Shown here: in pieces, positions 18,892-29,122 of the stretch
Layout: every line of letters begins with the position of its first letter
How positions within the stretch are numbered: position 1 is the first letter of the stretch
Origin: a virus
UHGV virus genome: UHGV-0275551
Strand: one strand, 5' to 3'
DNA: 64,000 bases
Notes under the pieces: generated by a model
Seen by the model: the letters and a program-made list of their open reading frames with translations, nothing else
Told to the model about the DNA's origin: nothing
The model's database searches: none
Position numbers and translations under genes: made by a program

Positions 18892-19164
18892 TTACTTCCT
18901 CGTTTTGAGAACTGCTAAGATTTCTTTAGAGTCTGGTAAGAACCATGTGTAGTGATTCTCTTTGATTTCTGGATGAGTGTCAACCTTTATTTTGCACTCT
19001 TTACCAACATGCTTAAGCTGTGCTGTGATACCTTGCATAAAGATGTGACACATTACATTATCCATAATCGTAGGTAAGAAATCAATCCTCATGTAAGTAT
19101 CTTTCGGTCTCGGTAGAAGTAAGTAACCTTCTGTGTAGAAAGTTTCATCATTACTTTGTGTCAT
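18892..19164 (-). CDS. hypothetical protein
   Basis: 90-aa ORF. Confidence 0.5.
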   Translation of the reverse strand: MTQSNDETFYTEGYLLLPRPKDTYMRIDFLPTIMDNVMCHIFMQGITAQLKHVGKECKIKVDTHPEIKENHYTWFLPDSKEILAVLKTRK

Positions 19165-19430
19165 TACTGCTTATTCCCTAATAAAATCATATCAATAAGG
19201 TTATTAGCTTTGATTGTGCACTGGTAAAATCCATCACGATAGAACTCAAGGGCTGCTGCCACATCGCTGCCAGTATTACCTTTGACAGTGAATCTTGACT
19301 CTTCTTGAGTGTACTTGTCACCCTCACTTACTTGGGAGTTTTTGAATGTACTGTTCACTTTGTTCGTTGAACACCCTGACATAATTATCAGTAACACAAA
19401 CATTATAAAACTCTGGCTTAGTTTTTTCAT
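19164..19430 (-). CDS. putative o-spanin (outer-membrane lipoprotein)
   Basis: Signal peptide with lipobox (IIMSGC); starts inside the previous gene in another frame. Confidence 0.5.
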   Translation of the reverse strand: MKKLSQSFIMFVLLIIMSGCSTNKVNSTFKNSQVSEGDKYTQEESRFTVKGNTGSDVAAALEFYRDGFYQCTIKANNLIDMILLGNKQ

Positions 19431-19671
19431 ATGTTAGTACCTCTTTTGTATGCTTATTCTTAGCAAGCACATCTTTCAAATCATTTTTGTAATTGGTGCT
19501 GAGTGTGGCTAAACCTTCCTGATAAGCATCTTTGGCAACACTTATTAGTTTCTCGTTATTTAGCTCAGTTTCAGCAACTTGGTAGTCTCTGTAAGAGTAT
19601 CCTCCCCAGACACCTGTCCCAACTAAGAAAACAATTATGAAAGTAGCTTGACAGAACTCTTTAAATGTCAT
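19324..19671 (-). CDS. putative i-spanin (N-terminal TM, periplasmic helical domain)
   Basis: N-terminal TM segment; overlapped by the lipoprotein ORF in the manner of overlapped spanin pairs. Confidence 0.5.
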   Translation of the reverse strand: MTFKEFCQATFIIVFLVGTGVWGGYSYRDYQVAETELNNEKLISVAKDAYQEGLATLSTNYKNDLKDVLAKNKHTKEVLTYEKTKPEFYNVCVTDNYVRVFNEQSEQYIQKLPSK

Positions 19672-20199: not shown

Positions 20200-20895
20200 T
20201 CAATGTTTAACTAACATGGTTTTAATGTGTGGAAGGATTCTGTTTACCTTCTGAACATTCTTCTCTGTATCTTCTATAAAACATACTATATCAAAGTAAG
20301 GCAGAATGCAAGACTGAATCATCCTCACTTTCAAACTTTCTGCACTTATAGAGTTAGTCCCAAAACCACGCATAAAAAGCATGTAATCATGCTCTATGTA
20401 ATGCCTTAAAAACATCTCAGTAGGTATTCTCTGAGATTCACCTCTTGCTGTCAATAGTCCAATGGCAGCGTGATTAGAAATTGCATCAATAATATTGAAA
20501 ACATACGTTGGTTTTGCACTTACAGAGTCAAGCAAATTGGTGTACTGTGAAAATGACCCATCAATCAGTTCCGTTGAGCAATCTTCGTGATTAAAATTTG
20601 TCAGAACACCATCAATATCTGCTAAGATGAGGTTACCTTTTTCTACAAGGTCTTTATTGACTATGACTAAACTGTCACGTCTTACACCTATAGTTTGTCC
20701 GGTCTCTTTGTCCACAACGTTCACAATTGGTTCTGATGTGTGGAACTCTTCAAGTGAACATACAACTTCTCTTGCAGTATCTTCAAAATCCCTGCACTGT
20801 TCTGGAGTCCATACACAGGAATCAAGACCTAACTCATGAGGATGCAAGTCATAAGCGTGGCACAGGACTTCATCAGACTTTCTTAATTTTTTCAT
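20200..20895 (-). CDS. hypothetical protein with HAD-like phosphatase motif (DIDGV)
   Basis: 231-aa ORF; C-terminal half has ILADIDGVLTNF; function tentative. Confidence 0.35.
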   Translation of the reverse strand: MKKLRKSDEVLCHAYDLHPHELGLDSCVWTPEQCRDFEDTAREVVCSLEEFHTSEPIVNVVDKETGQTIGVRRDSLVIVNKDLVEKGNLILADIDGVLTNFNHEDCSTELIDGSFSQYTNLLDSVSAKPTYVFNIIDAISNHAAIGLLTARGESQRIPTEMFLRHYIEHDYMLFMRGFGTNSISAESLKVRMIQSCILPYFDIVCFIEDTEKNVQKVNRILPHIKTMLVKH

Positions 20896-21421
20896 GATTT
20901 ACCTTAGAAAGGTTTGTTGCAAATTCACATTGAGCGATAACTTTCATATTGTTATAGACATCTTGAGAGTATTTCTTAGCTTTAGGGATTTTGTACGAAT
21001 ACCCAGCATTATATGATGCTAAAACTTTTTGTAAAGTCTTCTTTGACTTTGGCTGACCATGCACCTTTGTCCAAAACTCAAGCTCTTTGTGCGTTTCCTT
21101 CGCAGCATAGTCAAAATCTTTTAAGAGTTTCTTTTTAGCCACACTAGGACTAATTTTGTTACGCTTTACAACAGTCTTCAAGTGATTCTGGAAGATACCA
21201 TAGTCATGGGTCTTTTTATTTTCTACCTTCAGACCTAACTCTGACTCTTGTAAGGCTATAGCTGCTAGAGTGATACCCCAACCTTTACCCATGTTATTCT
21301 CACCATACTGGTAAGCTTTTAACATGTTCACTTTTTGACTAATTGATAGCTCTGGGCAGTCAACTGCATAAGATAAGTGTGCTGTAAACATTAAGCACAA
21401 ACCTAGAATCAATTTCTTCAT
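20873..21421 (-). CDS. secreted lytic-transglycosylase-like protein (SLT-like motifs)
   Basis: Signal peptide; QESELG, DYGIFQNH and SYNAGYSY resemble SLT motifs; SD AGGAG. Confidence 0.45.
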   Translation of the reverse strand: MKKLILGLCLMFTAHLSYAVDCPELSISQKVNMLKAYQYGENNMGKGWGITLAAIALQESELGLKVENKKTHDYGIFQNHLKTVVKRNKISPSVAKKKLLKDFDYAAKETHKELEFWTKVHGQPKSKKTLQKVLASYNAGYSYKIPKAKKYSQDVYNNMKVIAQCEFATNLSKVNHEKIKKV

Positions 21422-21478: not shown

Positions 21479-21510
21479 AAATAAAAAAGGCCGCCGAAGC
21501 AGCCTTTTAA
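21479..21510 (-). terminator. rho-independent terminator
   Basis: Minus-strand AAGGCUGC-uucg-GCGGCCUU followed by UUUUUUAUUUG. Confidence 0.65.
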
Positions 21511-21521
21511 GAAATTACTTA

Positions 21522-22631
21522 TTAGATTTCACGTTTACGTTGAGAGATGAGTTCACCAGCAGTGCCAACGATGACATGCAAAGCTTCAGTCTTACCGTCC
21601 CATGCTTCCAGCACTTTACGTTGATTATCAACGATTGCTGCAACTTCATAACGAGAGGAACGCATCTTCATATCATTGTAATCAGTTGGAACAGATACAA
21701 CATCTCGTGGATGTACGCGAACCTTCAGGATTGTATCACCTGAGAAGCAACGAACATAATCCCAAGCACCAACATGAAGACCTTGAGAGCAAGTTACGTT
21801 ACGGTTATTATCAACCATCCAACGTGGCATTTCTACAATGTTACCCAAATCATTAGGCACTTTGTAGGTGTGAGAGTCAACCAACTTGCCTTCACGAGTA
21901 GAGACTTTCTTCCAACCAATGATGTAGCCTTCTTCATCAATTTCAACATCAAGGTGAGATACAAATCCCCAAAGTTGTTCTACAGAATCTTTAGATGGGT
22001 TTTCCATCAGTTTTTCGAAGAACATTACAAGTCGTTCAAAACCTTTATCGCCAGTTTTCATCATGTGAAGAATACGGTCAACCAGAGTAGAACGCATCTC
22101 AACAGCACCGTAGAATAGCTTGTCGCCTTTGATTGTGATAGCACCCTGAGTGAAGTTTTCGATAGACTTACGAATGTTCATCAGTTCAAATGCTTTCTTG
22201 AACTCACCTTTCACAACATGAACTACAATCTCTTGATAGTTCGGATGAGTAGACTCAACAATTTCAGATTCTGAACCATAAGTCATAATTACAGAATCAC
22301 CAGTAATCATGTACTCAATCTTGTCATCTTTCTGCATAGCTTCGTGCAGTTTATTTACTGGAGCTTTCTGTACAGTGTCTTTAACGACCTTTTCAACTGG
22401 TTTGCCAGCTTTCTTTTTAAAAGTCTTAGCAACTTGTTTCAAAGTCTTCGTAGCTGGTGTAGAAGTTGCCTTCTTCTTGCCTTTTAAGGTTGCTTCATGA
22501 CGCTCTACAGCACGACCAACTGAACGGGTTGAAGTATTGAACTTCTGTGCAATAGCTGTTTTAGTCAGCTTACCTTCTTTAACCAGTTTGTAAATTTCTG
22601 CGTCAATCTGTGCTTTAGTTTTAGTAGTCAT
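21522..22631 (-). CDS. rIIB: rIIB-like protein (N-terminal HTH, Lys-rich linker)
   Basis: Immediately downstream of the rIIA-like gene; size and adjacency fit rIIA-rIIB pairs; HTH-like segment near N-terminus. Confidence 0.35.
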   Translation of the reverse strand: MTTKTKAQIDAEIYKLVKEGKLTKTAIAQKFNTSTRSVGRAVERHEATLKGKKKATSTPATKTLKQVAKTFKKKAGKPVEKVVKDTVQKAPVNKLHEAMQKDDKIEYMITGDSVIMTYGSESEIVESTHPNYQEIVVHVVKGEFKKAFELMNIRKSIENFTQGAITIKGDKLFYGAVEMRSTLVDRILHMMKTGDKGFERLVMFFEKLMENPSKDSVEQLWGFVSHLDVEIDEEGYIIGWKKVSTREGKLVDSHTYKVPNDLGNIVEMPRWMVDNNRNVTCSQGLHVGAWDYVRCFSGDTILKVRVHPRDVVSVPTDYNDMKMRSSRYEVAAIVDNQRKVLEAWDGKTEALHVIVGTAGELISQRKREI

Positions 22632-22675
22632 CTTATTACTCTCTCTTGTTAGTTAATCAATCAATTTGTGAGGCT

Positions 22676-22705
22676 ATTCTAAGGGGCTTCAAAGCCCCTT
22701 GTCAA
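22676..22705 (-). promoter_or_regulatory. near-consensus sigma70-type promoter with a GC hairpin as spacer
   Basis: Minus strand TTGACA-N18-TAGAAT; spacer AGGGGCTTTGAAGCCCC is a perfect inverted repeat. Confidence 0.5.
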
Positions 22706-22710
22706 ACACT

Positions 22711-25077
22711 TTAATCGTAAATTGTTGTACCTTCTGGAACACATTTCACATTAAAGCCTAAAAACTTACTCACTTCGATAGGTGATACTTTATTCCAATC
22801 TAAGTGTGAAAGCAAGAAGTTTTCTTGTTTTCTTTTTGAAAGATAGTTTGTCAGCTTGATAACCATGCGGTCACCTGCTTTTTTAATCTTTTTGTACAGT
22901 TTTGTGTCATTATCAAGGCATGACTTCAAATCCTGAAGAACACTGATAGTGTAAGTGTATGCAAACGGTGCAGCCACATACTGAATCTTACCGAACATTG
23001 CCTCAACAGCATCTTCATTCCCTTCTAAGAAGATTGTCTTAATAGTATCCCTTGAATAACAATACCCGCGAGAAATCTTCCTGTTATTGAACGTAAAGTT
23101 TCTGGCAATAATCCAACTGCTTGTAAGGTCGAGGACACCATCCATGTAGATGCGTGTCATATACCTGTTATGGTTAATCCAATGAACATCAGTTAAGCTG
23201 TCGTTCAAGAGCTTCTCATCTACTTCAATCCAGTCTTCTGGTATCTTTTTCCAATTTGCTTTTCGGAAAACATAGACTGTCTTGCCTGTAACATTAGCAA
23301 CTGACTTAGCTACATCCTCTGGAGATGAGCAAAAACATCTACCATCAACTGTGTCACCTACTGCCTTAATATAAAGCTGAGGTTCTTCAATTGTGTCTAA
23401 GTCTTCTGACACCTCTTTGTATGAAGCTTTAGTTTCTGCTGGAACAGCTTTCCAGAGTTTTACAACACCCCTTACAGCTTCTTTACGCTGATAGTGGTGT
23501 TCCTTATCAGACATCTTCACAATCTTTAACAAGCTTTTATCAAGTTTGTGTAGATTGATTAAATCATCTAACTCTTTTTCAGTCGAGAATACAAACACAA
23601 TGCCATTGTATCTGTGGAACAGGCCTGACTCGTTAGCGTAGTCTCGACATGCACCACGCAAAATTTGATTGCGTCCTACAGTCTTCTCAGTACCGTTTTT
23701 ATTGCGACGGTCATTAATCACGAACAAAAACTGTTCAATTTGGCTTTTACGCATTGCACCAAAGATATTGAACATGCTTGCCTCTTGAGTGTAGGAAAGT
23801 GCTGTTGCACGAATCTTACTCTCTAAAGAGTTGAACTTGACATAAGCAACTGGGTCATAAAGATAATCTACTTTAGGGATATTGTTCCCGTTCCTATCAA
23901 CCTTAATATTGCCTTTACCGTCACGTTCATAAATGACTGAGCCGTCTTCTGCGTAGATAATTCCACGACGAATGTTTAACAATTCTTCTTCCAGAGAATC
24001 AAGCTTAATGCCTCCCCACTCTAGCTTTGGACACACAGCATTAAACATCTCTCGTGAGTTCAAACGTAGCTCTGCATAAGCCTGTGCAGCATCCATGAGT
24101 GTAGGTTGGCTATTAACTTTCTTGATAACATCCTTTGTAATTGCTTCAGTTATCTTTTTGGTAGCCTCGATGATAACATTTTTTGTCGTATCATTCATCT
24201 GCAATGCTTCACGAGAAGCTGCTATAGCAACTGAACCAATAGGCATGTAGATGTTTACAAGGTCTACGCTCCTACGGAAAAACTCTGGCAAGACTTTGAA
24301 GAAATCATCACCAAGTAATGCTTCCATGTTCACTGGATAGGCAATATTACCCATCACCACATTAAACTCTGTCCTGTTACCACTAGAACGCCAGCTTTGC
24401 TTATGAATCATGGCATCGTAAACACCTTCTTCACGGGCAATGACGTTCATATCTGCTAATACATCGTCGTACTCAATATTACTTTCTGGTTTTACAGTGA
24501 AGTATGAGTACACATTTCCAGCTTCTTCAAAGAACTTTGAGATACGGTGGTCAGCAACTGCCACACGTACAGCTAAACCATTAGGTTCTTTTGTTGGGTT
24601 AGTGGTCAGTTTAGTTACTTGAGGGATACCATTCTCAAGATAAACAGAGTACTTATTAACAACACCATCAACATAGCTAGATACTGTGAATGACTGAGCA
24701 ATTGCAAATGGGGATTTTGAGCCGACACCCATTGCACCAATGTAGTCATTAGAGTCATTCTTCGTAGAAGCCCCGTAGTTTAGGTACAAACTCATAACTT
24801 TATCATGAGTCAATCCAGTTCCAAAATCACGAACTTCAAAGTAAGGCTCAAAACGAGTAGGTAAATGCACATGGAACGGGATGTTCTCTTTTCCAGCTTC
24901 TTTCTGAGCATCTACTGCGTTACATGACAGTTCACGAATCACTGCCCTTTCTTTAAAGGTATATACACCAGAACTCAAAAGGCTGAACATCTCAGGTGTC
25001 ATTGTAATCTGTGCTTGAGACGTCTCTAAAGAAGTTGAACTCTTAATCACTTCTGCGTGGTCATTTACCATGCGCAT
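22711..25077 (-). CDS. rIIA: rIIA-like protein with N-terminal GHKL (Hsp90-like Bergerat-fold) ATPase domain
   Basis: N-box IRELSCNAVDA, G1 box RDFGTGLT, G2 box IGAMGVGSKS; 788 aa; followed by rIIB-like gene. Confidence 0.5.
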   Translation of the reverse strand: MRMVNDHAEVIKSSTSLETSQAQITMTPEMFSLLSSGVYTFKERAVIRELSCNAVDAQKEAGKENIPFHVHLPTRFEPYFEVRDFGTGLTHDKVMSLYLNYGASTKNDSNDYIGAMGVGSKSPFAIAQSFTVSSYVDGVVNKYSVYLENGIPQVTKLTTNPTKEPNGLAVRVAVADHRISKFFEEAGNVYSYFTVKPESNIEYDDVLADMNVIAREEGVYDAMIHKQSWRSSGNRTEFNVVMGNIAYPVNMEALLGDDFFKVLPEFFRRSVDLVNIYMPIGSVAIAASREALQMNDTTKNVIIEATKKITEAITKDVIKKVNSQPTLMDAAQAYAELRLNSREMFNAVCPKLEWGGIKLDSLEEELLNIRRGIIYAEDGSVIYERDGKGNIKVDRNGNNIPKVDYLYDPVAYVKFNSLESKIRATALSYTQEASMFNIFGAMRKSQIEQFLFVINDRRNKNGTEKTVGRNQILRGACRDYANESGLFHRYNGIVFVFSTEKELDDLINLHKLDKSLLKIVKMSDKEHHYQRKEAVRGVVKLWKAVPAETKASYKEVSEDLDTIEEPQLYIKAVGDTVDGRCFCSSPEDVAKSVANVTGKTVYVFRKANWKKIPEDWIEVDEKLLNDSLTDVHWINHNRYMTRIYMDGVLDLTSSWIIARNFTFNNRKISRGYCYSRDTIKTIFLEGNEDAVEAMFGKIQYVAAPFAYTYTISVLQDLKSCLDNDTKLYKKIKKAGDRMVIKLTNYLSKRKQENFLLSHLDWNKVSPIEVSKFLGFNVKCVPEGTTIYD

Positions 25078-25105: not shown

Positions 25106-25282
25106 TTACTTATTAAACATTTTACCAGAACCACCACACATAGGGCAACAACCTGCTCTTGTATACCCTTCCCCATTGCAGTAATCACACTTCTTGTACT
25201 CTGCATAGTACTTGCAAAGAAGGTAAACAAATACTGCTACGCTGCCAAGTGACAGTAAAATTTCTATCCAATATGCTTGCAT
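25106..25282 (-). CDS. small membrane/zinc-ribbon protein (58 aa, below the track cutoff)
   Basis: N-terminal hydrophobic helix then CDYC...CCPMCGGSG. Confidence 0.35.
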   Translation of the reverse strand: MQAYWIEILLSLGSVAVFVYLLCKYYAEYKKCDYCNGEGYTRAGCCPMCGGSGKMFNK

Positions 25283-25600: not shown

Positions 25601-25628
25601 ATCTTCTCCAGAAATTAAAAAGGCTCCC
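25601..25628 (-). terminator. rho-independent terminator after the NAMPT-like gene
   Basis: Minus-strand GGCTCC-uacg-GGAGCC followed by UUUUUAAUUUC. Confidence 0.65.
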
Positions 25629-25652
25629 GTAGGAGCCTCTTATCATATACTT

Positions 25653-27434
25653 TTAAAGCTGCTTGTCAATATTATTTCGAATATCACCAAGAGTTGTGTA
25701 ACCGTACTGCTCAGAGTCGCTAAAGACTAAACGTAAAGCACAAGCTGGATGTTCAAGTGCATCTGCAAAGCTCTGGAATCCATAGCCATCTACAGCTTTC
25801 AAATTCTCACCATCCCACATAGGTGCTACACCACCAAAGGCAGATTTCTTAACACCACTATCTGTTTTAGGGTCTTTTGCAAGCATAATCTCTTTGCCAC
25901 CAATGCTTGCAAGAGTTGCTTTGACAGCAAATGCAAAGGTGTCACGAGTCATGTACTGGTAAGTGTAAGAGCCTACACCAAACACTACGTTAGAGCTTGC
26001 AAAACCCATTTCATACAGACGCTTCAGGATTTCGTTTGCACGTTCCAACGTGATAGAGTCACCATAGATAAGTCCAATGTGCTCATCCAGTACCTTAAAA
26101 CCTTTAGAGTTGATAGTTCCTCCAAAGATGTTATACAAGGTCTTAATAGCTCCATCAATCTCTGCTACAGGGCGTGTTACAACGTTTGCAGAACCAACCA
26201 TATAAGCGTTCTTCAACATCACTGTATCAGCAACTTCAAAGTCTTCTCTGTCAACAACCATTTCGTAGCCTTCTGACAGTAGCCATCCAGCAATACCATA
26301 GCTGATGTTTTCAAGCTTCATGTTCAGAACAGCATTCAGCATTGTGTCACTGGCTTCCAGATTGCTTAGGTGCTCATAATAAGCCTTTTTAGCACACTCT
26401 AAGTGGATTGCTTTATAACCTGTGACAATGTGTACAGGGTCTCCAGAGTCAGGACGAATTACCAGTTTGCCATCACGTTCCATAATTTCTTTACGGAGTG
26501 CTGGTAAGATTTCTGACACAGTTCTCCAGAAGTTATAAGTGTCTGAAACAACACTTGCAATACCAGTTGGATAAGTTTCTGTTAAGAAGCGACGGAAGGT
26601 TTGCAACTCACCTTTAAAGCGTCTTTCTTCTTCAACCAACTCATTACCACCTTCCCAAGCAATGTTTGCACACATTACAGAGTGTTCAGTGGCTGGTACA
26701 GAACCACCAATATCAGAGACTGGGTAAGACTGTCCGTAGATGCGTTTAGCTGTATATACAGCAGGGAAGCTATCAGTCCCTTTAAAGCTGGTTAAGTGGC
26801 CTACAGCGTTAAATGCGTCATCAGTAAAGCCGGACATACCACGCATAGCAAAGTCATGGCACTGATAAGGTAAATGTAAGTCATTGTCGCAAGTAAGGTC
26901 AGCCCACTTCTTACAGATGCGTTTATAATGCAATGCAATAGTTGCAATGGTACAAGCCTTCCAAATCTCAGCAGAGAAAGCATCTTCCAGATATCCCGCT
27001 ACCCAATGGAAACCTGAAACAGTGTTCTGGAAGACAATCATTGGTACACGCATAGGAACAACTGTACCTTCTTCTACAGCGTATACTTCAACTGGTAGAT
27101 AACCTAAGTCGTGAAGTGCTTCCCAATGCTCTCGACCGATAGCATCTTTACCCAGAACACCATTCATGACTTCTAAGATTTCATCAATGGCTTCTTTTTT
27201 ATCACGTTCAAAGAAAGTGGCGTTCCAGTGGTCTATCAAGTAATCTTTAACGAAACGTTGAATACCAAAAGCTACTACACCATCAATTGCTAAGGGGCTG
27301 TTAAACCACTTATCACTACGTGGTGTCAGGTTCAACATAAGATATTGCGTAGCATCTGGATACTGATATATATGTGATGCCTTGTAAGCATCTGCATTAA
27401 GACCTGCTGGTACTGCGTAAAGTGACTTACTCAT
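25653..27434 (-). CDS. nicotinamide phosphoribosyltransferase family protein (NAMPT-like; possible Namat-type)
   Basis: N-terminal DAYKASHIYQYP (TDSYK-like) and C-terminal GDSIT...VVFGVGSYTYQY match NAMPT family motifs. Confidence 0.8.
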   Translation of the reverse strand: MSKSLYAVPAGLNADAYKASHIYQYPDATQYLMLNLTPRSDKWFNSPLAIDGVVAFGIQRFVKDYLIDHWNATFFERDKKEAIDEILEVMNGVLGKDAIGREHWEALHDLGYLPVEVYAVEEGTVVPMRVPMIVFQNTVSGFHWVAGYLEDAFSAEIWKACTIATIALHYKRICKKWADLTCDNDLHLPYQCHDFAMRGMSGFTDDAFNAVGHLTSFKGTDSFPAVYTAKRIYGQSYPVSDIGGSVPATEHSVMCANIAWEGGNELVEEERRFKGELQTFRRFLTETYPTGIASVVSDTYNFWRTVSEILPALRKEIMERDGKLVIRPDSGDPVHIVTGYKAIHLECAKKAYYEHLSNLEASDTMLNAVLNMKLENISYGIAGWLLSEGYEMVVDREDFEVADTVMLKNAYMVGSANVVTRPVAEIDGAIKTLYNIFGGTINSKGFKVLDEHIGLIYGDSITLERANEILKRLYEMGFASSNVVFGVGSYTYQYMTRDTFAFAVKATLASIGGKEIMLAKDPKTDSGVKKSAFGGVAPMWDGENLKAVDGYGFQSFADALEHPACALRLVFSDSEQYGYTTLGDIRNNIDKQL

Positions 27435-27450: not shown

Positions 27451-27942
27451 TTAGTTATGTCTTGCAAACTCACCATGAAGTTCTATTCGCTTTTTAATTA
27501 CAGCTTCTTTTGCTTCTTCTACCGTTTTAAATCTTCCACAAAAGTATTCTTTATGGTAAAGCATGACTCTTGCTTTGTAAAGACCTGTTTGTTTACAAAA
27601 ACTTACACCCTTCACACCAGTTTTATTATTCTTGTATATACCCCTATTCCTCTGATTTTGTGACTTTGTGCTAAGTCTTAAATTATCCAACTTATTATTA
27701 GATTTATCAAGGTCTATGTGGTCTATCTCATATCCACTTGGTATCTCACCTCCAGACATAATCCATGCAATATTATGTGCATAGTACCTCTTCTTATTTA
27801 TCTGGACTTGGATATAACCCTTCTTAGACCTTGTGCCAGCCACATTACCAGCAATAGCGGTACTGCAAAGGGTTACTCTCCAAATTAATAAACCTGTATC
27901 TGGTTCATATATTAGGTATCTTTCAAAATAACCCTTATTCAT
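27451..27942 (-). CDS. HNH homing endonuclease with C-terminal AP2-like DNA-binding domain
   Basis: EIDHIDLDKSNNKLDNLRL...QNQRN HNH motif; C-terminal GV..RV...GK..FKTVEEA; paralog at 50517-51029. Confidence 0.7.
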   Translation of the reverse strand: MNKGYFERYLIYEPDTGLLIWRVTLCSTAIAGNVAGTRSKKGYIQVQINKKRYYAHNIAWIMSGGEIPSGYEIDHIDLDKSNNKLDNLRLSTKSQNQRNRGIYKNNKTGVKGVSFCKQTGLYKARVMLYHKEYFCGRFKTVEEAKEAVIKKRIELHGEFARHN

Positions 27943-27950
27943 ACTGTTAC

Positions 27951-28832
27951 CTAATCAATGGTTGCTACAGTAACTTGACCATAATGTGTTAAGCCACGGT
28001 CTTTAGCTTCCCCTAAAGAGTTTGTAGTGTAGATGTGGTCAATGCCATTGTCAAGAAGGTTTTCAACATCTTTAGAGAAGATACCGTGTGTTACATAGAG
28101 TTCCACACGTTTTGCACCTGCTTCACGAAGATGTTTAGCTGCTTCTATGAAGGTTCGACCACCATCACAGATATCATCCAGAATCATGACGGTTTTATCT
28201 GTCAAATCAACATCATCAAGGATTCGCATACCAGTAATTTCACCAGTCTTAAGGTTGCGTACTTTAGACATTGTGATATATGGTTTATCCACCTCTTTAG
28301 CAGTCTCTGCAATCTTCTTAGCAGCACCTGCATCTGGGGCTACTAAGTAATCAATCAGTGGGTCATTTGCATAGTGGACTGCAATTTCCTTTTGAGGAAT
28401 ACTCTGGAAGCAGTTAAACAGGTTATCTGGTACATAGCTGTGAGGGTCAACTGCACAGACTGCACCAAATCTCATTGCATTTACCTGTTTAGCAAAAACC
28501 TTTAAAGCTGCTGCGTCGCCTTTAAACATGTGACGGTCATAACGTGCATTTGGTAAGTAGTAAAAGATGACAGTCTTTAAAGCATAATCATGAGGAATTA
28601 AATCATCAATTGCTTCTTTAGCAAGTGCCACAGCAAACAATGTATCCTTATCATAACCTTTTACAATCATAATCACATTGTTGATGGATGATGCTGCATA
28701 AGCAGTGAAATCAACAAACTCTGGCGAAAAGTGTCCACCAATCTCACCAGAAGGAAATTGGATGATGTTAAACTCTTCTTCATGAGTTCCTTTAGTTGGT
28801 GAATGAACTGTAACACGGATAGATGTTTTCAT
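27951..28832 (-). CDS. ribose-phosphate pyrophosphokinase family protein (PRS-like; possible Adps-type)
   Basis: PRPP-binding loop VMILDDICDGGRTF; track start is TTG 28847, ATG 28832 has SD GAGAGAGA. Confidence 0.8.
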   Translation of the reverse strand: MKTSIRVTVHSPTKGTHEEEFNIIQFPSGEIGGHFSPEFVDFTAYAASSINNVIMIVKGYDKDTLFAVALAKEAIDDLIPHDYALKTVIFYYLPNARYDRHMFKGDAAALKVFAKQVNAMRFGAVCAVDPHSYVPDNLFNCFQSIPQKEIAVHYANDPLIDYLVAPDAGAAKKIAETAKEVDKPYITMSKVRNLKTGEITGMRILDDVDLTDKTVMILDDICDGGRTFIEAAKHLREAGAKRVELYVTHGIFSKDVENLLDNGIDHIYTTNSLGEAKDRGLTHYGQVTVATID

Positions 28833-28843
28833 AGTTTTCTCTC

Positions 28844-29122
28844 TCAATCAAAAGTTACGTTTGTTACTGCCATTGCAGATTTGCATTTTGCAGGGTCTAC
28901 AACGTGATAAAGTACACTACAGTTACCTGTACTGTCTGGTACAGGTTTAACCCATTGTTGCTTGACAGTTGGTTCGCCTAAGTCTTTGTAAGAACCATCT
29001 GTAAAATTGTTTACCATCTCAAGTGCAATTGGTTCTGGAACATGACCACGTATCATGTACATCTCACAACCATTACCACCTTCACTCACTAATGGTAAAA
29101 TTTCCCACTTCTCTTTAGCCAT
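28844..29122 (-). CDS. hypothetical protein
   Basis: 92-aa ORF. Confidence 0.5.
   Translation of the reverse strand: MAKEKWEILPLVSEGGNGCEMYMIRGHVPEPIALEMVNNFTDGSYKDLGEPTVKQQWVKPVPDSTGNCSVLYHVVDPAKCKSAMAVTNVTFD

Follow-up and report, generated by a model that had tools for sequence, protein, structure and literature searches.

The closest described systems to the locus studied here are the rII genes of phage T4 (rIIA, NP_049616, and rIIB, NP_049889) and those of Bas63 (Escherichia phage JohannRWettstein, MZ501086), whose genes bas63_0084 and bas63_0085 are annotated as 'membrane integrity protector rIIA/rIIB'. Deletion of either Bas63 gene (g84 or g85) lowers plating 10^4-10^5-fold on hosts carrying QatABCD, and complementation largely restores it (preprint PMC11482910). 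With CRISPRi-ART, knock-down of rIIA or rIIB in T4, MM02, EdH4, SUSP1 and N4 impairs plating on hosts with RexAB and not otherwise (PMC11879866), and the rII dependence of T4 on these hosts was confirmed by HIDEN-SEQ (preprint). When no defence system is present, the rII genes of T4, MM02, EdH4, SUSP1, N4 and Bas63 are dispensable. Furthermore, RIIB of phage T6 is toxic on its own and triggers a Lysobacter CARD-gasdermin system (PMC10312443). Here we analyze the rIIA-rIIB locus of the UHGV virus genome UHGV-0275551, studied as one stretch of 64,000 nucleotides (the window), which belongs to a Felixounavirus (FelixO1-type phage). SUSP1, whose rII module counters lambda RexAB, is a Mooglevirus and shares with the window phage the subfamily Ounavirinae, although not the genus; it was compared through the Mooglevirus Henu11.

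Identification of the rIIA and rIIB genes

Two co-directional open reading frames (ORFs), encoding proteins of 788 and 369 amino acids (aa), lie on the minus strand of the window with rIIA directly upstream of rIIB and a 79-bp intergenic spacer between them (Table 1). Both are real genes; they show purifying selection in relation to their relatives, with ratios of nonsynonymous to synonymous substitution (dN/dS) of 0.04-0.22, and have many homologous protein clusters (>1000 for RIIA and >250 for RIIB).

The best PHROG match of RIIA was phrog_612 'RIIA' (E=1.2e-188, aa 1-771) and RIIB matched phrog_609 'RIIB' (E=2.2e-89), the same two PHROGs that contain the T4 proteins over their full length. 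BLASTP analysis showed 32% identity between RIIA and T4 RIIA in aa 24-317 (E=9e-37), and hhalign of the RIIA family profile against T4 RIIA aligned aa 12-327 (E=1.2e-54). RIIB shows 37% identity to T4 RIIB over nearly its full length (aa 11-339, E=1e-60). The identities of 32-37% measured for the window proteins disagree with the '>80% homology' of Bas63 rII to T4 stated in the PhageMaP preprint (PMC11482910). The original prediction had proposed these two genes as an rIIA/rIIB pair and left to family profile searches whether the similarity to rII proteins goes beyond the ATPase fold. The pair was recovered at the predicted positions, both genes on the minus strand, both families were matched, and the similarity does extend further: the alignment with T4 RIIA reaches aa 317-327, past the Bergerat domain of about 190 residues, and RIIB, which has no ATPase fold, matches its T4 counterpart as described above.

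A Pfam scan of both proteins retrieved no rII family, only sub-threshold HATPase_c and helix-turn-helix (HTH) matches. A cluster representative 98% identical to RIIB carries PF26926, a family that we infer to be absent from our local copy of Pfam. The phrog_609 profile has 1055 positions, of which 19-310 match the N-terminal ATPase of RIIA and 751-1049 match RIIB; this suggests that some phages encode natural RIIA-RIIB fusion proteins and hence that the two proteins may act jointly. The E values rule out that the homology to the T4 genes is an artefact. The pair very probably represents the Felixounavirus orthologues of T4 rIIA and rIIB, forming a two-gene counter-defence module, and it is already known and annotated in relatives.

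The 3.9-kb rII region shows 99.6% identity to E. coli O157 typing phages 8 and 12; many Felixounavirus isolates follow at 95-97%, and megablast matched 275 phage records in all. In the four nearest GenBank records, those of O157 typing phages 8, 12, 1 and 15, both genes appear as 'hypothetical protein', and rIIA/rIIB labels are found in RefSeq typing phage 1, FelixO1, KhF3, Bas63 and many others. The adjacent rIIA-rIIB order is also present in FelixO1, KhF3, Bas63, Henu11 and phiEa104, and the T4 genes abut across the ends of the genome record. T4 shares with the window both PHROGs, gene order, strand, the ATPase module and nearly full-length RIIB; however, its rIIA-rIIB gap is about 11 nt instead of a 79-bp spacer with a putative promoter and a hairpin, and the C-terminal halves of RIIA do not align pairwise or by hhalign. 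Bas63 belongs to the same genus as the window phage and shares the intergenic promoter and palindrome, as well as the order prs, nadV, small membrane protein, rIIA, rIIB, SLT-like gene and polynucleotide kinase, but lacks the HNH endonuclease gene found between nadV and prs in the window. RIIA is about 97% (97.5%) identical to that of Bas63 and RIIB 82-83% (82.6%), the differences in RIIB being located mainly in the linker, parts of the core and the C-terminal tail (about 40% identity after aa 330). Identities to Henu11, which shows the same arrangement of promoter and hairpin, are 62.8% for RIIA and 83.3% for RIIB.

Table 1. Position of the rII genes, their protein domains, regulatory elements and neighbouring genes in the window.
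Feature	Coordinates	Strand	Evidence or remarks
rIIA gene, 788 aa	22711-25077	minus	ORF, phrog_612, homology to T4 rIIA
rIIB gene, 369 aa	21522-22631	minus	ORF, phrog_609, homology to T4 rIIB
RIIA aa 26-330, predicted two-domain GHL-type ATPase module	24088-25002	minus	
RIIA aa 331-788, lineage-variable C-terminal region	22714-24087	minus	pLDDT mostly 85-95
RIIB aa 5-51, predicted three-helix HTH domain	22479-22619	minus	
RIIB aa 53-91, predicted lysine-rich disordered linker	22359-22475	minus	pLDDT <50
RIIB aa 195-335, conserved family core	21627-22049	minus	
Sigma-70-type promoter-like site, TTGACA-18 nt-TAGAAT	22676-22705	minus	11/12 consensus
20-nt palindrome filling the promoter spacer, AAGGGGCTTTGAAGCCCCTT	22681-22700	minus	8-bp stem, 4-nt loop, -12.5 kcal/mol
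Predicted intrinsic terminator, 14 nt after the rIIB stop	21485-21508	minus	10-bp stem, 5 GC pairs, T-run
Predicted intrinsic terminator after nadV	25618-25641	minus	10-bp stem and T-run; upstream edge of the four-gene block
58-aa gene directly upstream of rIIA	25106-25282	minus	phrog_3931
Promoter-like site TTGACA-16-TATGAT	25642-25669	minus	11/12
nadV (nicotinamide phosphoribosyltransferase)	25653-27434	minus	Bas63 g80
HNH homing-endonuclease gene	27451-27942	minus	phrog_99, E=5e-68
Ribose-phosphate pyrophosphokinase (PRPP synthetase) gene	27951-28847	minus	Bas63 g79
182-aa gene just downstream of the rIIB terminator	20873-21421	minus	SLT lytic transglycosylase, E=0.0011 (sub-threshold)

RIIA shows a predicted Hsp90-like ATPase module

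The ATPase module of RIIA is predicted to contain a Bergerat-fold ATP-binding domain (approximately aa 26-190) and a transducer/middle-like domain with an invariant S288-R289-E290 (SRE) motif. The Bergerat-fold boxes anticipated in the original prediction are present as E49-x3-N53-x2-D56, D84-x-G86-x-G88 and G114-x2-G117-x-G119. In an alignment of 59 diverse family members all these residues are invariant save G88, with a conservation of 90% or more; K121, R289 and E290 are also invariant.

The 'Hsp90-type' label given to this domain in the same prediction agrees with the profile and structure comparisons. The RIIA family profile retrieved from the PDB mainly TRAP1, HtpG and Hsp90 chains, with a best E of 4e-5 (TRAP1), and a few weaker matches to unrelated proteins. 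The AlphaFold2 model of RIIA has a mean predicted local distance difference test (pLDDT) score of 85, and its top 50 Foldseek matches in the PDB are all members of the Hsp90 family, with E values down to 1e-16 and 560-755 aligned columns. Comparison with E. coli HtpG by hhalign gave 93.9% probability in aa 30-174. The likeness to the Hsp90 family (HtpG, TRAP1 and GRP94) involves the N-terminal helix and the motif I, G1 and G2 boxes, motif I being IRELSCNAVDA in RIIA and LRELISNASDA in HtpG. Single-sequence PDB searches with RIIA and RIIB gave nothing useful.

The best NCBIfam match of RIIA is 'HSP90 family protein' (aa 30-134, E=6.6e-11), which lies under the family cut-off with 41 bits versus 455, and the ATP-binding domain of sacsin is a further sub-cut-off match. 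In Pfam, HATPase_c matched RIIA only with E=0.1, HATPase_c_3 was matched by 20 of the 59 relatives, and HSP90 gave no match at E<=1. With no Pfam HSP90 match and an NCBIfam score so far under the cut-off, RIIA falls outside the Hsp90 family proper by these profile scores, and the C-terminal dimerisation domain of that family was likewise not recognised in it. PADLOC matched RIIA to TmtA, a match confined to the GHKL segment.

In the second domain, the best local alignment places the SRE motif of RIIA on S335-R336-E337 of HtpG (BLASTP E=0.006), and hhalign of the RIIA middle region against the single HtpG sequence gives a matching SRE register with a probability of just 5-7%. In Hsp90 this arginine belongs to the middle domain and makes contact with the gamma-phosphate of ATP. 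For a broader Hsp90 profile of the middle domain, genome contigs were scanned with HtpG; the scan gave just sequences with at least 89% identity, all from Enterobacteriaceae or close relatives, which is too little diversity. These alignments are suggestive of an Hsp90-type middle-domain arginine loop in RIIA, which we consider a lead rather than demonstrated homology. No description of RIIA as Hsp90-like beyond 'GHKL' was found in the searchable literature, where queries combining rIIA and Hsp90 matched just Fc-gamma-RIIA papers.

Conservation of RIIA is concentrated in its N-terminal part. Homologues were detected by tblastn in 2926 phage records, most of which match just approximately the first 320 aa, and for most relatives outside Ounavirinae the alignment is confined to about the initial 320-400 aa, a third to half of the protein. 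The C-terminal region of about 450 aa did not align to T4 RIIA by BLASTP or hhalign, although the phrog_612 profile covers aa 1-771. No transmembrane segments were found in RIIA or RIIB.

Domain organization of RIIB

The predicted structure of RIIB (mean pLDDT 83) has four parts: an N-terminal three-helix domain, a disordered linker, a helical/beta middle region and a beta-rich C-terminal core. The HTH-like segment expected at the N-terminus corresponds to the three-helix domain, which resembles the HTH of sigma region 4 and LuxR. The linker region is strongly basic, with 15 K/R versus 3 D/E in aa 49-100, and the invariant residues of the family are located in the C-terminal core.

The intergenic spacer contains a promoter-like site and a conserved hairpin

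Between the two genes the original prediction had placed a promoter with a GC-hairpin spacer. A promoter-like site with this organization was found: its spacer is filled by the perfect palindrome AAGGGGCTT-TG-AAGCCCCTT, both hexamers are conserved in four relatives, and the predicted transcription start is near 22669. The pattern TTGACA-N15-19-TANAAT is observed three times in the window versus 0.7 expected. KhF3 has exactly this arrangement, and hexamers and palindrome are unchanged in FelixO1. In Bas63 the palindrome differs only in the loop, TCAA versus TTGA in the window, and Henu11 keeps the arrangement, its loop being GAAA and its spacer 17 nt long. The Erwinia phage phiEa104 (Kolesnikvirus) shows a hairpin at the equivalent position with a different stem (GGGCTG-GAAA-CAGCCC) and without recognisable hexamers; thus, the hairpin appears to be a more persistent element than the promoter hexamers. 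Downstream of the hairpin comes UAGAAUAGCC; as no U-tract is present, the hairpin is not a canonical terminator, and the terminator scan did not report it. No Rfam family was found at the gathering threshold across the whole window.

Two predicted intrinsic terminators delimit a block of four genes, which encode proteins of 111 aa and 58 aa, RIIA and RIIB and which we infer to be a single transcription unit. KhF3 has an annotated terminator at the place equivalent to the one that follows rIIB. Within this unit, rIIB would gain extra transcription from its own sigma-70-type promoter overlapping the hairpin, and read-through rIIA mRNA would end or be stabilised at the spacer hairpin, which would then form its 3' end. 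The palindrome is possibly also an operator, which the HTH of RIIB might bind. A second promoter-like site packed against a hairpin was observed in the locus: it lies over the end of nadV and directly adjoins the hairpin of the nadV terminator (Table 1).

Genes adjacent to the rII locus

The 58-aa gene upstream of rIIA encodes a protein with one N-terminal transmembrane helix (maximum Kyte-Doolittle value of 2.11) and two DnaJ-type CxxCxGxG zinc-finger motifs, CDYCNGEG and CPMCGGSG. Its Pfam DnaJ_CXXCXGXG match is under the cut-off (E=0.017), its PHROG has no assigned function, and its position is conserved in Bas63, KhF3 and FelixO1-type phages. A correspondence with T4 rIIA.1 was considered and rejected, as the two share no sequence relationship and T4 rIIA.1 falls in another Pfam family. 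A putative membrane-anchored DnaJ-like zinc finger beside an Hsp90-like ATPase is suggestive.

Further upstream, the HNH homing-endonuclease gene lies between nadV and the ribose-phosphate pyrophosphokinase gene. These two genes adjoin directly in KhF3 and Bas63, and Henu11 has no insert upstream of nadV. Their Bas63 counterparts, g80 and g79 respectively, are reported to counter Sir2-HerA (PhageMaP preprint PMC11482910), so the window would contain a second counter-defence module just upstream of rII. On the other side of the locus, the 182-aa gene product shows a signal-peptide-like N-terminus, and its relatives are labelled 'putative lysin' in some phages and 'hypothetical' in others. No tRNA genes were found in the window with ARAGORN; therefore, the FelixO1-type tRNA cluster would be located outside it. 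Bas63 has tRNAs.

Discussion

The orthology of the pair leaves the question of how the two proteins act. As a tentative proposal, RIIA and RIIB would work together, with RIIA as a dimeric clamp that is driven by ATP in the manner of Hsp90 or MORC. What sets off abortive-infection systems of the membrane-depolarising or nuclease-based kind, either the infection signal or the sensor component, would be masked or remodelled by the RIIA-RIIB complex, and the HTH and lysine-rich linker of RIIB would anchor this complex on DNA or on the acidic membrane surface. RIIA might accordingly be placed, tentatively, as a phage branch of the Hsp90 lineage, with an ATP-binding domain and a catalytic-arginine loop, which exerts its counter-defence activity by an Hsp90-like clamp on a client (the defence sensor or trigger), with RIIB as HTH-bearing co-factor. 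We consider the clamp mechanism as such, too, to be less likely than not, and several points weigh against it or against the counter-defence reading as a whole. The ATPase activity, dimerization, RIIA-RIIB binding and DNA binding are putative, the functional evidence comes from relatives and its QatABCD part from a preprint, and no molecular mechanism for rII proteins was found in the literature searched. In structure searches, neither the 450 C-terminal residues of RIIA nor the RIIB core showed a solved relative. Moreover, RIIA and RIIB differ in their patterns of divergence when Bas63 and Henu11 are compared, which implies that recombination has occurred within these genes or between them; they would therefore be exchangeable separately, and this speaks against a very tight co-adaptation.

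Four other explanations were considered. According to one, RIIA and RIIB are literal 'lysis inhibitors' that delay holin-mediated lysis in a lysis-timing circuit, as their PHROG and RefSeq product names ('RIIA/RIIB lysis inhibitor') and the spanin genes located about 2 kb downstream (19164-19671) might indicate. We regard it as very improbable, given that the rII genes are dispensable in T4, MM02, EdH4, SUSP1, N4 and Bas63 when the host has no defence system and that neither protein has a transmembrane segment. The name itself is historical and goes back to the plaques of T4 r mutants, with their phenotype of rapid lysis. The main role of RIIB could also be to regulate the transcription of phage genes in a sequence-specific way, as proposed by Iyer et al. 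(2021), with RIIA acting separately. The sigma-region-4/LuxR-like HTH, the classification of RIIB as a specific transcription factor (PMC7824862) and the conserved palindrome just upstream of rIIB, which lies inside the promoter and could be its operator, agree with this role; however, the part conserved in the family is the C-terminal core and not the HTH, loss of rIIA or rIIB leads to an equal defence-specific phenotype, and T6 RIIB alone is toxic and triggers the gasdermin system without phage DNA. A primarily regulatory role is thus unlikely.

It seems still less likely that RIIA is a DNA-acting GHL ATPase, similar to MutL, MORC or the ATPase of topoisomerase II, which changes the topology or compaction of phage DNA instead of working as a chaperone-like clamp. 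All the sequence-level signals favour Hsp90 over MutL or GyrB, the SRE motif of the second domain has an arginine as in Hsp90, where GyrB and MutL carry a lysine, and domain scans of RIIA detected no Toprim, endonuclease or CW/coiled-coil domain. The remaining alternative concerns the intergenic element, which might act only as a hairpin for transcript end or RNA stability, the hexamers being chance matches. The phiEa104 hairpin, with its different stem and no recognisable hexamers, would fit this explanation, which is the least improbable of the four and nevertheless doubtful: both hexamers are unchanged across Felixounavirus and Henu11 despite differing flanks and spacers of 17 versus 18 nt, their match to the consensus is 11/12, and a hairpin without U-tract is not a canonical terminator. 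A promoter overlapping the hairpin is the reading that we prefer.

The annotation value of these results is small, since the rII module is already labelled in FelixO1 and many relatives, and only two points go beyond routine annotation: the possible Hsp90-type arginine loop in RIIA and the promoter-embedded hairpin that is conserved independently of the hexamers. The predicted structures, an Hsp90-like ATPase of two domains whose SRE loop is invariant and an HTH-bearing partner with a basic linker and a conserved core, point to E49, N53, D84 and R289 of RIIA as concrete targets for mutation. The rII genes are widespread, the defence systems that they counter include at least RexAB and QatABCD, and RIIB itself is sensed by a bacterial gasdermin system.

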